Below, in pieces: positions 386 through 5,512 of a stretch of DNA of 5,512 nucleotides. Each line of letters starts with the position of its first letter. Within the stretch, counting starts at the first letter, position 1. Made by a program: the position numbers and the translations under genes. The notes below the pieces were generated by a model, which was not told the DNA's origin, did no database searches, and saw only the letters and a program-made list of their open reading frames with translations. The DNA comes from a virus (lineage: Duplodnaviria; Heunggongvirae; Uroviricota; Caudoviricetes): the IMG/VR virus record IMGVR_UViG_2706794670_000011; one strand, 5' to 3'.

Positions 386-913
386 ATGATGCACCTGAAA
401 AATATTAAGGCCGGGAATCCGAAAACACCGGAACAATACCAGCTAACTAAAAAAGCGGGCGTGGTATGGCTCTTTTGCGAAGATGGCAAAAACTGGTATG
501 AGGAACAAAAGAATTTTCAGCCAGACACCATAAAAATTGCTTACGATGAGAACAACATCATCGTTGCTGTCAGTAAAGACGTTTCAACTATTAATCCTGA
601 AGGGCTAAGCATAGTTGAAGTTCCTGATATTACGGCAAATCGTCACGCAGACAATAACGGAAAATGGATGTTTCTGGATGGTAAAGTAGTAAAGAGGGAA
701 TATACAGAACAGGAACTGCAACAACAGGCCGAATCACAAAAGGCCGCATTGCTTTCCGAAGCTGAATCAGTCATCCAGCCGCTGGAACGAGCTGTCAGGC
801 TGAATATGGCAACAGACGAGGAACGCACACGACTGGAAGCATGGGAACGCTACAGTGTTCTGGTCAGCCGTGTGGATACGGCAAATCCTGAATGGCCACA
901 AAAGCCTGAATAA
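386..913 (+). CDS. Tail fibre assembly protein (Tfa family chaperone)
   Basis: ATG at 386 ([14 protein letters not shown]...) one base after the stf stop, with GGGGAG 8 nt upstream. N-terminus and length match the Tfa family and are homologous to the convergent copy at 942-1475 ([14 protein letters not shown]...). C-terminus ([22 protein letters not shown]) is homologous to the tfa remnants at 2698-2781 and 3597-3830. The ORF track begins at 350, but 386 is the more likely start. Confidence 0.85.
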
Positions 914-941: not shown

Positions 942-1475
942 TCATTCTGGTTGTTCGGGAAACGTTACTGGCAGGCTGGAGGTGTCTGTGGATTCAACCT
1001 TCTGCGCATAGAGCATCCACTCGGTTAATTTTTGTTTATTCTCATCGGAAATGATGCCCAGCTGTAGCTGAGAGTCCCACAGCTGGGTTTTATCCCTGAC
1101 GAGCTGCAGCAGGCTCTGCTTTTCATTTTCCGCTTGTTGCCTTTGCTCTTCCTCGGTATAAGTTCGCTTTATCACCGCACCATCTTTGAACATCCAGTTG
1201 CCCGAAATATCAGCCCGGCGATTTGCTGTAATATCAGGCAACTCAACGACACTTAAACCTTCTGGATTAATTGCTGATACATCCTTGTCTATAGCAATAA
1301 TTATTCCCTCAACTGTGTAAGCCAGTTTTATTGTATCCTCCTGAAAGTTTTTTAATTCCTCATGCCAATTTTTTCCATCTTCGGACCATAACCAGATAAC
1401 ATCAAAATTCTTTGTTAGCTGGTATTGTTCAACGGTTTTTGGATTACCTGCGACAATGTTTTTTAAATGCTGCAT
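942..1475 (-). CDS. Tail fibre assembly protein (Tfa family), alternative copy
   Basis: 177-aa ORF starting [37 protein letters not shown], homologous along its length to the plus-strand Tfa at 386-913. Its ATG sits 2 nt after the stop of the upstream 49-aa stf' C-terminal ORF (TAATCATG). Confidence 0.85.
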
Positions 1476-2400: not shown

Positions 2401-2454
2401 TGGCGGTTTCTGGCCTGCATGGCATGATTTGTGCTTTTGGACGGGAGATTCAGC

Positions 2455-2697
2455 GTGCTGATTGGCTATGTAAGGGTATCAACAAATGACCAGAATACAG
2501 ACCTGCAACGAAACGCTCTTGTTTGTGCAGGATATGAACAAATATTTGAAGATAAATTAAGCGGAACAAGGACAGGCCGACCTGGATTAAAACGTGCTTT
2601 AAAGCGCCTTCAAAAAGGTGACGCACTGGTTGTCTGAAAACTGGACTGACTGGGGCACTGTATGCGGCATCTTGTCGTGCTGGTGGTGGAAGCCTAG
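2455..2697 (+). pseudogene. pin: Serine DNA invertase (Pin/Hin/Gin family), disrupted: N-terminal ~80 codons with three in-frame stops, fused to a tfa 3' fragment
   Basis: GTG start at 2455 with GGAG 7 nt upstream. Translation MLIGYVRVSTNDQNTDLQRNALVCAGYEQIFEDKLSGTRTGRPGLKRALKRLQKGDALVV*KLD*LGHCMRHLVVLVVEA* carries the serine-recombinase N-terminal catalytic motif (YVRVST) and the family WKLDRLGR motif with W and R replaced by TGA (2635-2637, 2647-2649). The C-terminal two-thirds, including the HTH domain, is absent. Confidence 0.8.
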
Positions 2698-2781
2698 AAA
2701 AAGTATCGGGTGTTGCTGAACCGTGTTGATACATCAACTGCACCTGATATTGAGTGGCCTACGAACCCTGTCAGGGAGTAA
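2698..2781 (+). pseudogene. Tail fibre assembly protein 3' fragment (last ~28 codons), fused in frame behind the pin remnant
   Basis: [27 protein letters not shown] is nearly identical to the C-terminus of the tfa remnant at 3597-3830 and homologous to the C-terminus of Tfa at 386-913. The Trp codon of the conserved EAW motif is TAG here (2695-2697). Confidence 0.6.
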
Positions 2782-2830
2782 TCATTGGGATTATGCCGCA
2801 GCACGTCTTAAGCAAGAACGTGCTGCGGTT
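2698..2830 (+). repeat. Direct repeat copy 1 (tfa 3' end plus downstream hairpin)
   Basis: Manual alignment of 2704-2830 against 3753-3880 gives 9 mismatches and one 1-bp indel over ~127 bp. It contains the hairpin CCGCAGCACGT-(11 nt)-ACGTGCTGCGG at 2796-2828, followed by a T-run at 2839-2844. Confidence 0.85.
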
Positions 2831-2835
2831 GGATG

Positions 2836-3504
2836 CTATTTTTTCCCTGAAGCGGAAAACATTACTACAGTACCTTGAACCCTGGTTTTAACATTCTCGA
2901 AATGCTCTGAGAGTATATGTGTTAAGCCTTCTTCGGAATCTTTTGTGTTTGAAAAGATGCCTTTCTGATTGTAAATGCGCATCAGTTTTTGACCGAAGCT
3001 ATTGTGCACAACTCCATCGCCAAGAATTGTGGCTCCGTATAGAGTTCCATCGTCAGTTAAGGCCTGCGCCGCATTGCGTATTACACAGCTTTTTGTAGAT
3101 ATATTTCCAGGCAGGCAGTGAAGAAGGTAAAACATGGAAATGGAATCAAATTGACCATGTAACGCCGCGGGATAAGGTTCAAAAACATCATGGCTAATTT
3201 TATGTTTAATTTTTGATTCCCCAGCCCTTGTAGATGCCGCGTTCAGGCTAGCTTCGTTCAAATCCATTAAAGATATCAGACTACTCTCAGGTACGTGAGT
3301 AAGGTAAAACCCAGTTCCAACACCAATATCCAGATGGTTGTTACCTAAATGTTCCAGAAAGTGTGGAAGAAGGTGTTCCTTTGTAGGACATCCCCATGCA
3401 AGCCGATTTGATACTCCCAAAACCCACCAGTCATAAAGCTTTAGGGTAAGTGGTGTGTAAATTTTAGCCCCATCATCTGTGTTTGTTTTCATTGATTTCA
3501 CCAT
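2836..3504 (-). CDS. Class I SAM-dependent methyltransferase (Rossmann fold), substrate unknown; probable prophage cargo (moron) gene
   Basis: 222-aa ORF (218 aa from the second ATG at 3492, which has GGTGA 5 nt upstream). Motif I LDIGVGTGFY (GxGxG SAM-binding loop), an acidic residue at the end of the next strand (LISLMDLNE), a later FDSISMFYLLHCLP segment and ALTDDGTLY. No DPPY/NPPY or PC-ENV motifs, so it is not an obvious DNA methyltransferase. Confidence 0.75.
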   Translation of the reverse strand: MVKSMKTNTDDGAKIYTPLTLKLYDWWVLGVSNRLAWGCPTKEHLLPHFLEHLGNNHLDIGVGTGFYLTHVPESSLISLMDLNEASLNAASTRAGESKIKHKISHDVFEPYPAALHGQFDSISMFYLLHCLPGNISTKSCVIRNAAQALTDDGTLYGATILGDGVVHNSFGQKLMRIYNQKGIFSNTKDSEEGLTHILSEHFENVKTRVQGTVVMFSASGKK

Positions 3505-3533
3505 GTTATAGTTTTATTTGTGAATTAAATCAA
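3505..3533 (-). promoter_or_regulatory. Candidate sigma70 promoter for the methyltransferase gene
   Basis: On the minus strand, TTGATT - 17 bp - TATAAC lies immediately upstream of the first ATG, in an AT-rich gap. It is speculative, and the spacing to the preferred second start is tight. Confidence 0.25.
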
Positions 3534-3596
3534 TTATGGCGATGAATTACAAGGGGTTAAATGCTGCCGCAGCATAGCGATATTGAAATAGCCTAG

Positions 3597-3830
3597 TATG
3601 CTTCGATACAGCAGGAGCCGAATGGCTGGAAGACCGTCACCACACAGTTCTACATCCAGGAATTTAGTGAGTATATTGCGCCACTGCAGGATGCTGTAGA
3701 TCTGGAAATCGCAACGGAGGAAGAAAGATCGTTGCTGGAGGCATGGAATAAATATCGGGTATTGTTGAATCGTGTTGATACATCAACTGCACCTGATATT
3801 GAGTGGCCTGCAAATCCTGTCAGGGAGTAA
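3597..3830 (+). pseudogene. Tail fibre assembly protein C-terminal remnant (~77 codons, no start codon)
   Basis: Frame open from 3597 (stop at 3594-3596) to TAA at 3828-3830. Translation ...[57 protein letters not shown] is homologous to the C-terminal third of Tfa at 386-913. There is no ATG and no N-terminal Tfa domain. Confidence 0.7.
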
Positions 3831-3880
3831 TCATTGGGATTATGCCGCAGACACGTCGTATGCAGGAACGTGCTGCGGTT
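3747..3880 (+). repeat. Direct repeat copy 2 (tfa 3' end plus downstream hairpin)
   Basis: Partner of 2698-2830. Hairpin at 3845-3878 (CCGCAGACACGT...ACGTGCTGCGG) has a 1-nt bulge relative to copy 1. Confidence 0.85.
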
Positions 3881-4240: not shown

Positions 4241-4833
4241 ATTAAAACCGCATCAACCTTTCCACCAATTGTTCTTTACGGGCAACGATCCACCCATGTT
4301 GCTCCAGATAAAATTTAAACCGTTCCAGAGTGCATACCATCGCATCGGCGGGGACTTTTTCTGTGAACTCGACCTGANNNNNNNNNNNNNNNNNNNNNNN
4401 NNNNNNNNNNNNNNNNNNNNNNNNNNNNNNNNNNNNNNNNNNNNNNNNNNNNNNNNNNNNNNNNNNNNNNNNNNNNNNNNNNNNNNNNNNNNNNNNNNNN
4501 NNNNNNNNNNNNNNNNNNNNNNNNNNNNNNNNNNNNNNNNNNNNNNNNNNNNNNNNNNNNNNNNNNNNNNNNNNNNNNNNNNNNNNNNNNNNNNNNNNNN
4601 NNNNNNNNNNNNNNNNNNNNNNNNNNNNNNNNNNNNNNNNNNNNNNNNNNNNNNNNNNNCCGAAAAGTTGGCTGATGTAAATTCGGGAGAGCAGTCGAGT
4701 GTGTCAATCTTAGCTAAAACGTGTTTATGTTGTTTATCGAAGTAGTCGGCAACAGCTTGAGAGGTGGTAACCAGGCGACCATCTTTGAAAAAGACTTTTG
4801 GTGACTCGTTAGAAAAAGTTATAGCTGTATTCA
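4241..4833 (-). CDS. Phage regulatory protein, Rha family (N-terminal Rha domain visible; centre masked; C-terminal part in a different frame)
   Basis: ATG at 4833 (minus) with GGAG 9 nt upstream. N-terminus MNTAITFSNESPKVFFKDGRLVTTSQAVADYFDKQHKHVLAKIDTL matches the Rha-domain pattern (...TTS..VA..F.K.H..VL..I..L). After the N-run the only protein-like minus frame is ...QVEFTEKVPADAMVCTLERFKFYLEQHGWIVARKEQLVERLMRF*, ending at 4241-4243. Confidence 0.6.
4378..4659. other. Masked or unknown sequence (run of 282 N) inside the rha locus
   Basis: Continuous N run seen directly. Confidence 1.
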
Positions 4834-5409
4834 TATGTGATGACTCCAATTAATTGGATGATCACCACCTCTGACGCCAATCAGGGAGGTGGTGAGACGT
4901 ACAGGGTTGGCGTAACCGGTCATCACAAAACCCGGCGCGGATTTCTCCGCCCCTGCACGCCCCACCATAATGCGAATGTGGCAATGCTTAACGCAAAAAA
5001 AACCGCAAACGCGGCTATGCGTTGTGATGTTATCCGAGACGCCAATCCCGACAACCGATTTTGCGGTTGTGTGAGGAATATAGCCCCGGAGAACAAAAAC
5101 TGTCAACGGGCAAAAAAATTTCCGTTATCAGGAATGTATAAAATTAAAGCGATCGAGCAAAAAATCCTTTCTGCAAAACTAAAAAAGATTTCAATAAAAT
5201 CAGGCAGTTAAAAACACGGAAAACGGTATAAAAAAGCGCCTCAAAATCCTGTTTTTTCTTTCAGATACAATGTCTTATTGCATTTTTTAAAACATGTCAG
5301 TGTGGTACATGGATATCGATACCATCGCCAATTATAAACTGGGCGGTGCACAGCAACATGATAGCGTACGCCTCGATCCGTGGGTGTTTATGTTCTCAGC
5401 AGGATATCG

Positions 5410-5512
5410 GGTAATGACTCCAACTTATTGATAGTGTTTTATGTTCAGATAATGCCCGATGACTTTGTCATGCAGCTCCACCGATTTTGAGAACGACAGC
5501 GACTTCCGTCCC
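5410..5512 (-). mobile_element. IS1 insertion sequence, right end (partial; continues beyond the window)
   Basis: GGTAATGACTCCAACTTATTGATAGTGTTTTATGTTCAGATAATGCCCGATGACTTTGTCATGCAGCTCC... matches, from memory, the reverse complement of the IS1 right terminus, including the ~23-bp terminal inverted repeat at 5410-5432. Confidence 0.9.
5425..5512 (-). CDS. insB: IS1 transposase InsB, C-terminal end (partial)
   Basis: Minus-strand translation ...GRKSLSFSKSVELHDKVIGHYLNIKHYQ* with stop at 5425-5427, the characteristic InsB C-terminus. Confidence 0.85.
   Translation of the reverse strand, partial: GRKSLSFSKSVELHDKVIGHYLNIKHYQ

Follow-up and report, generated by a model that had tools for sequence, protein, structure and literature searches.

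What is a methyltransferase gene doing among the tail-fibre genes at the end of a prophage, and what might its product methylate? The question is raised by a 5,512-nt stretch of tailed-phage DNA (IMG/VR record IMGVR_UViG_2706794670_000011; the whole stretch is referred to below as the window), in which an open reading frame (ORF) on the minus strand, at 2836..3504, encodes a protein with an S-adenosylmethionine (SAM)-binding motif. An initial annotation, made from the letters alone, had described this gene as an orphan class I SAM-dependent methyltransferase in the accessory position beside a tail fibre and an invertase. The gene is already catalogued: it is the intact form of ybcY, a pseudogene of prophage DLP12 in Escherichia coli K-12. 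We consider it probable that the intact gene is accessory cargo (a 'moron') of E. coli lambdoid prophages and encodes a stand-alone cytoplasmic class I methyltransferase that acts on a small molecule.

Identity of the methyltransferase gene

The window gene does encode a class I (Rossmann-like) SAM-dependent methyltransferase. Motif I (LDIGVGTGFY) occupies residues 58–67, with the (D/E)xGxGxG signature at the end of strand 1 present as DIGVGTG (residues 59–65; G65 is invariant in the divergent alignment), and scores for four Pfam models (Methyltransf_12, _23, _25 and _11) all exceed their gathering cut-offs. An AlphaFold2 model of the 218-aa protein, built with 30 homologues as input (predicted local distance difference test, pLDDT, 89.6; predicted template modelling score, pTM, 0.86), is a single domain of seven beta strands alternating with helices in the class I pattern, with no extra nucleic-acid-binding domain. 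A helical lid at the N-terminus contains YDWWV...SN..AW.C, a motif without variation, and the helical insert that separates strands 5 and 6 contains YNxKGIFSN..D. The acidic residues for ribose and adenine are also in place: D81, at the end of strand 2, is invariant and D106, after strand 3, is conserved; they share hhalign columns with D77 and D102 of BelI, which contact the ribose and adenine of SAM (PMC11408123). The initial annotation was therefore right both as to the extent of the ORF and as to its class, and structure prediction returned the SAM-binding fold that it had read from motif I. Placement in a well-characterised housekeeping methyltransferase family, which it had named as one observation that would speak against it, was given by no profile search.

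The coding sequence itself is probably slightly shorter than the ORF. A start at Met5 (2836..3492, 218 aa) is indicated because homologues and PHROG 2132 begin there and because its ATG has the Shine–Dalgarno-like sequence GGTGA 5 nt in front of it; no such sequence precedes the Met1 ATG. That the ORF is not a chance one follows from the annotation of proteins 98–99% identical to it in thousands of genomes and from strong purifying selection, with a nonsynonymous (dN) to synonymous (dS) divergence ratio of ∼0.1 in a pairwise comparison with the Citrobacter homologue (dN 0.155, dS 1.58). On the opposite strand a 45-aa ORF (2754–2891, plus strand) overlaps the 3′-end of the gene; RefSeq labels for it range from 'hypothetical protein' to 'nucleocapsid protein', and it is probably a spurious call.

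Sequence comparison assigns the protein to the YbcY family. The match to PHROG 2132 is full length (residues 5–222, E 9e-156) and the YDWWV lid, LLHCLPG and YNxKGIFSN motifs are invariant in the homologue alignment; among homologues at 33–56% identity only eight residues remain invariant (Y24, G65, D81, H129, C130, G157, N186 and D189). Within this family the window gene is the intact allele of the DLP12 pseudogene, with 99% DNA identity to a frameshifted gene in the DLP12 prophage of a K-12-like strain, 30088 (L010:7001-7667). There the gene, labelled 'frameshifted' in RefSeq, is flanked by tfa fragments and followed by appY-ompT; the gene order of this prophage is IS5-interrupted porin, essD, rrrD, rzpD, bor, ybcV, ybcW, ylcI, nohD. 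K-12 ybcY (b0562) is listed as a putative SAM-dependent methyltransferase pseudogene. The K-12-type allele has an ATA in place of the Met5 ATG and a 2-bp deletion at codons 6–7, which account for its pseudogene status, together with a few substitutions. The name ybcY, for a gene next to tfaX and ompT, is published (PMC3946193) and the exact window protein is present in RefSeq as WP_000240999.1, 'class I SAM-dependent methyltransferase'; as an entity the gene must therefore be regarded as already known.

It is also common. Copies at 95% identity or more occur in 3832 of 5426 complete E. coli genomes (∼70%), with one to four copies in each, and the 90%-identity cluster around the 222-aa protein contains 6589 member sequences. 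The gene is less obscure than the initial annotation had implied: no curated NCBIfam family reaches its cut-off (the best score is 17 bits against cut-offs of 160–390), but the gene is an intact ybcY, belongs to a PHROG and is found in most complete E. coli genomes.

Transcription and cargo status

The methyltransferase gene is antisense to the tail genes, located between two 3′ fragments of tail-fibre-assembly (tfa) genes, and has candidate signals at both ends (Table 1). Upstream are two candidate sigma-70 sites, one of which has the hexamers (TTGATT/TATAAC) listed for ybcY in a genomic SELEX (systematic evolution of ligands by exponential enrichment) survey of RpoD promoters (PMC3946193); the row for ybcY has 'HNS' entered in it too. 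Downstream is a hairpin with a predicted RNA folding energy of −25.4 kcal/mol (z = −5.3), a stability reached by none of 200 shuffled sequences; it is followed by a run of T on the plus strand. Read on the plus strand, the hairpin is a predicted terminator for read-through from the tail genes; on the minus strand it would form the 3′-end of the methyltransferase transcript. The antisense orientation, the promoter-like sites and the 3′ hairpin together argue that ybcY is its own transcription unit, separate from the tail genes. We envisage that YbcY would be expressed in the lysogen and not as part of the virion programme, probably at a low level and under repression by H-NS.

These are features expected of a moron, and a further such feature is a position that varies between prophages. 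In K-12 DLP12 the module tfaD'-ybcY-tfaX' has the same layout as the window (tfa fragment, antisense ybcY, tfa fragment), but there the gene is dead and the module adjoins appY-ompT, whereas the window carries the intact allele in another prophage, at the ompW site by trpA, behind a truncated invertase. The module is bracketed in the window by a direct repeat of 148 nt (families D1 and D2), the copies of which are 90% identical, and its recurrence in DLP12 suggests that homologous recombination at the tfa ends carries the module from one prophage to another.

Carriage is not confined to defective elements. In the active temperate phages ev243, 2G7b, PhiR26/29/30/49/68, Kati and Turner, ybcY likewise follows the genes for the side tail fibres and is antisense to these. 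Phage ev243 has ybcY, tfa', alpha/beta hydrolase, ompT and int in that order, which shows ompT and ybcY to be joint cargo of active lambdoid phages and DLP12 to be the degraded relative of such a phage. In one strain all that is left of the DLP12 region is tRNA-Arg, int', tfa', ybcY and ompT, with ybcY intact.

Substrate class and competing explanations

Searches with the protein and its model return a consistent class of enzyme. By sequence, the best match in the PDB is JHAMT (profile E 1.7e-5), followed by UbiG, a Pyrococcus methyltransferase and ToxA; by fold (Foldseek against the PDB), bacterial PmtA comes first, then JHAMT, SgvM and PfPMT, all with E-values within three orders of magnitude of one another. 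The viral fold library BFVD gave generic methyltransferases only. The nearest matches overall (JHAMT, UbiG, DhpI, BelI/CysG and PmtA) are small-molecule methyltransferases, none of them close enough for family membership, and every significant match by sequence or fold is a small-molecule, lipid or natural-product enzyme. DNA methyltransferases were absent from the top 50–60 matches listed for each PDB fold search and from the PDB sequence matches. Given these matches, the lack of a curated family and an isoelectric point (pI) of 6.6, the protein is best read as a cytoplasmic small-molecule methyltransferase. This agrees with the initial annotation, which had favoured a small-molecule, protein or RNA methyltransferase over a restriction–modification (R-M) component.

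Two of the matched enzymes bear on the active site. JHAMT (PDB 7EBS, 7EC0), the closest PDB sequence match, has the class I core in common with YbcY, and HMMER aligns H129 with its catalytic His115. This histidine hydrogen-bonds the substrate carboxyl, and in JHAMT1 replacement of His114 by alanine abolishes activity (PMC8526772). However, JHAMT is an insect enzyme of ∼270 aa, the alignment is confined to core residues 41–144, and the terpenoid pocket and N-terminal catalytic glutamine are unmatched: of the strictly conserved Gln14/His114 catalytic pair only the histidine is aligned, the glutamine region being outside the alignment with no equivalent conserved glutamine in the homologue alignments. 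YbcY does not appear to belong to the JHAMT family.

BelI and CysG (PDB 9FCE, 9FCD) are metal-dependent carboxyl O-methyltransferases of belactosin and cystargolide biosynthesis. The hhalign comparison (97% probability) places H129 and C130 of YbcY on their H122 and H123, two ligands of a His-His-Asp calcium site that holds the substrate carboxylate (PMC11408123). In YbcY the second of these ligands is a cysteine, the residues that bind the malate carboxylates (Arg22, His167 and Arg187) are not conserved, and the gene has no biosynthetic cluster around it, unlike BelI/CysG. Membership of this group was rejected, the His-His-Asp motif being matched only in part (C130 for H123, probably S185 for D191). 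Of the known enzymes, those that YbcY resembles in lifestyle and context are Tam, TehB and Rv0560c, stand-alone small-molecule methyltransferases that detoxify or modify their substrates; no specific sequence relationship accompanies the resemblance. YbcY is a member of none of the R-M DNA methyltransferase, BelI/CysG and PmtA families.

On the explanation we favour, YbcY would use SAM to methylate a small metabolite or a xenobiotic. By analogy with JHAMT His114/115 and BelI/CysG His122, the invariant His129, just after strand 4, may position or deprotonate the acceptor atom; beside it the invariant Cys130 would take the place of the second metal-binding histidine of BelI/CysG. Our leading guess for the acceptor, a weak one, is an oxygen nucleophile, for instance an acid's carboxylate. 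YbcY would then modify or detoxify its substrate much as Tam, TehB or Rv0560c does, and because such stand-alone enzymes lack pathway neighbours this would fit the context of ybcY.

Several observations weigh against this explanation. A histidine after strand 4 is common in class I enzymes, including N-methyltransferases (PfPMT), which is why the guess of O-methylation is weak. The third BelI/CysG ligand, Asp191, is outside the hhalign alignment and corresponds, when aligned by hand, to Ser185. As to cargo status, the promoter hexamers are at consensus level and no more numerous than in shuffled sequence, and the GC content of the gene (0.41) is not distinct from that of the adjoining phage genes (0.42–0.45). 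Finally, the searchable literature yielded no functional study or phenotype for ybcY. In one paper a K-12 ybcY mutant did not differ from wild type when Hha was overexpressed, but K-12 ybcY is a pseudogene and the result is therefore uninformative. More generally, with the gene intact in most natural E. coli and dead in K-12, functional genomics based on K-12 could not have revealed its role.

It is possible, though rather unlikely, that YbcY has gone further and become domesticated: a phage-delivered enzyme with a His-Cys active site, perhaps metal-binding, that methylates a particular host or environmental metabolite, such as an organic acid, or perhaps the head group of a lipid, as a trait of most wild E. 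coli. Such a trait would have escaped notice because the K-12 allele is a pseudogene and, if it exists, the retention of the gene by ompT in decayed DLP12 relics would reflect selection in the gut or urinary tract.

We give much the same low weight to methylation of a macromolecule other than DNA, in which the target would be RNA or a host protein (a ribosomal protein, an elongation factor or an outer-membrane precursor) and the effect a tuning of lysogen physiology. The best sequence-level matches, all small-molecule enzymes, speak against it, as do the near-neutral pI and the lack of an extra RNA-binding domain, and no NCBIfam model for an RNA or protein methyltransferase was matched.

The position of PmtA (PDB 8YS9) at the head of the Foldseek list (E 5.7e-12; template modelling (TM) score 0.62–0.68) raises a more specific alternative, namely that YbcY is a phospholipid N-methyltransferase that converts phosphatidylethanolamine to its monomethyl form or further and so alters the lysogen envelope. 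PmtA is like YbcY in length and fold, phosphoethanolamine N-methyltransferases recur in both fold lists, and there is a weak NCBIfam match to the Legionella-type PmtA (E 0.011). The fold scores are, however, no better than those for dozens of unrelated methyltransferases, and there is no significant sequence relationship: membership of the PmtA family, considered on account of the Foldseek rank, is ruled out by a score of 15.5 bits against a cut-off of 390 (NF045882) and by a profile E-value of 0.1 for 8ys9. The N-termini differ as well. Agrobacterium PmtA begins with a basic amphipathic helix; the disordered N-terminus of YbcY is acidic or neutral and has no such helix. To our knowledge methylated phosphatidylethanolamine has not been reported in wild E. 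coli, and we regard this alternative as improbable.

A role in conflict between phage and host is no more credible. Here YbcY would serve defence, superinfection exclusion or counter-defence, for example by methylating a signalling nucleotide or the precursor of another phage's modified base. The slot is suggestive, since the variable end of lambdoid prophages by the tail-fibre genes is a known place for such cargo, and the PADLOC defence models gave a match to mad2 (E 0.0027). This was the sole PADLOC match and not a convincing one: at 14.6 bits it is generic and fold-level, covering the common methyltransferase core. At the loci fetched from outside Escherichia the homologue is found beside mostly ordinary chromosomal genes with no partner gene, and no partner effector is present. 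The roles initially suggested for the gene (receptor or envelope modification, exclusion, defence) are favoured by nothing we found and are pure speculation.

That ybcY is a functionless passenger, hitch-hiking with recombination modules flanked by tfa, seems very unlikely. The pseudogene in K-12 and the lack of a reported phenotype would be expected of a passenger, and the bracketing repeats could spread the gene by homologous recombination; but neither the dN/dS ratio, nor active-site residues invariant across many proteobacterial genera, nor the size of the 90%-identity cluster, nor an intact ybcY in a relic with almost no other phage genes is readily reconciled with absence of function.

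Phages often carry orphan DNA methyltransferases, and the protein contains an ENV tripeptide (residues 203–205), yet an epigenetic or anti-restriction role of this kind is barely tenable, given the fold and sequence matches, the lack of a target-recognition domain, the absence of [DNS]PP[YFWH] and PC[QH] motifs (regular-expression search) and an ENV that is not conserved among homologues and that, being located moreover in the C-terminal strand region, is not motif VI of a C5 enzyme. The initial annotation had reported neither a DNA-methyltransferase motif nor an adjacent restriction or specificity gene. The first statement holds with the qualification that ENV is present; the second extends beyond the window, no such gene being found in it or within 12 kb on either side in one matching genome. 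The neighbours are tail-fibre remnants and the Rha and Ash genes.

The gene is catalogued and ordinary, and nothing found suggests a new kind of system. Its value is modest and resides in its being intact in most natural E. coli but dead in K-12, in strong conservation across many Proteobacteria and in retention where the carrier prophage has almost vanished. To identify the substrate would close a minor gap in the E. coli pan-genome and could reveal a new chemistry of lysogenic conversion.

Genomic setting and the wider family

The window covers the right-hand end of a lambdoid prophage whose integration site is ompW, beside trpA: an ompW 3′ remnant followed by the end of trpA marks the junction of prophage and chromosome. 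The same arrangement, at 99.5% identity, is present in E. coli isolated from humans, strain 4/1-1 among them. Runs of N mask 1904–2146, in the alternative fibre tip, and 4378–4659, in the Rha gene, and coordinates shift by ∼35 nt relative to the matching genome across these runs.

Table 1. Annotated features of the window, in order of position
Feature	Position	Strand	Basis or remark
Tail-fibre assembly gene tfa	386..913	+	Caudo_TAP E 8e-37
Inverted alternative tfa'	942..1475	-	Caudo_TAP E 5e-34; inverted repeat I1
Alternative tail-fibre tip	1478-~2396	-	Partly masked by N
Pin-type serine invertase, N-terminal fragment	2431..2637	+	68 aa; Resolvase positions 2-69/145, Pfam E 4.6e-15
Direct repeat, left copy	2684..2830	+	tfa 3' end plus hairpin; RefSeq: tfa fragment
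Hairpin, 11-bp G+C-rich lower stem	2796..2828		Between convergent tfa fragment and methyltransferase stop codon
Methyltransferase ORF, intact ybcY allele	2836..3504	-	222 aa; ORF call, Pfam, PHROG, AlphaFold2
Shine-Dalgarno-like GGTGA	3498..3502	-	5 nt upstream of Met5 ATG (3492..3490); sequence read directly
Promoter-like region	3505..3560	-	Two candidate sigma-70 sites; consensus matches only
Candidate sigma-70 site TTGATT-17-TATAAC	3533..3505	-	
Candidate sigma-70 site TTAACC-16-CATAAT	3560..3533	-	
Direct repeat, right copy	3733..3880	+	Within tfa 3' fragment 3654..3830 (tfaX-like remnant); second hairpin copy
Rha-family gene	4277..4834		Partly masked by N
Ash-family ORF	4831..5106		
C4 antisense RNA	4885-4972	-	Rfam 75.9 bits, above gathering score
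isrK Hfq-binding RNA	4996-5070	-	Rfam 72.2 bits, above gathering score
ompW 3' remnant	5291-5431	+	
trpA end	5482-5512		

The window opens with the tail-fibre end, before tfa. The tfa gene and the inverted tfa' are remnants of an invertible host-range segment, and it is these that define the methyltransferase slot. With a tail fibre, tfa genes, an inverted tfa' and fibre tip and a truncated resolvase-type invertase just upstream, the location given by the initial annotation proved accurate. The invertase (in RefSeq, 'recombinase family protein, incomplete') is only an N-terminal fragment, and the tail-fibre host-range switch is therefore presumably locked in one orientation; the point at which the invertase is cut off is also where the tfa'-ybcY-tfa' module begins.

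Beyond the second tfa fragment are a DUF4376 remnant, the Rha- and Ash-family genes and the ompW remnant. The C4 and isrK matches both fall inside the Ash-family ORF, upstream of the Rha-family gene, and the region looks like an antirepressor control module resembling immI of P1/P7.

Outside E. coli, sequence searches indicate a compact and discrete family, matched over its full length including the N-terminal lid. Among 1.84 billion representative sequences the family profile matched 408 clusters at E≤1e-30 and 1727 at E≤1e-3, and 527 stretches from species-representative genomes, mostly of Proteobacteria, encode a relative. Relatives at 50–65% identity are found in Enterobacterales, Pasteurellaceae, Pseudomonas (including P. 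syringae, P. viridiflava and P. cichorii), Xanthomonas, Dyella and relatives, and Oxalobacteraceae. Homologues outside Escherichia are stand-alone chromosomal genes, and their adjoining genes, mostly ordinary, differ by genus. The word 'orphan' is accordingly apt only for the lack of a partner gene, because the family is mainly chromosomal in many Proteobacteria.

The neighbours were surveyed at 80 homologous loci from other species, with ORFs of at least 80 aa clustered by all-against-all BLASTP (25% identity over 60% of length), the ORF caller and clustering both being crude. No partner gene family shared between genera was found among these loci; synteny is at the level of the genus only. 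An alpha/beta-hydrolase partner was considered, a hydrolase gene being near the homologue in ev243, an O157-like strain, Enterobacter and Erwinia, and was rejected: the hydrolases are non-homologous (BLASTP E 0.87) and belong to different Pfam families.

Three genus- or family-level arrangements were seen. In Pseudomonas a DUF6388 gene precedes the homologue on the same strand at about eight loci, with a gap or overlap of less than 10 nt, and a 230-aa gene of the enoyl-CoA hydratase family follows it at 13 loci, with fadB- and fadA-like genes near in several. In all three Pasteurellaceae loci fetched (L042, L048, L051) the homologue is ∼180–300 nt upstream of an OmpW-family gene; the window prophage too is in ompW, which is probably a coincidence. 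IbrA and IbrB are prophage-associated regulators in E. coli. In Proteus (L058, L061, L075–L078) and Klebsiella (L027) the homologue is near an IbrA-like gene (PAPS_reduct, DUF3440), and a second conserved gene at these loci is taken to be IbrB-like.

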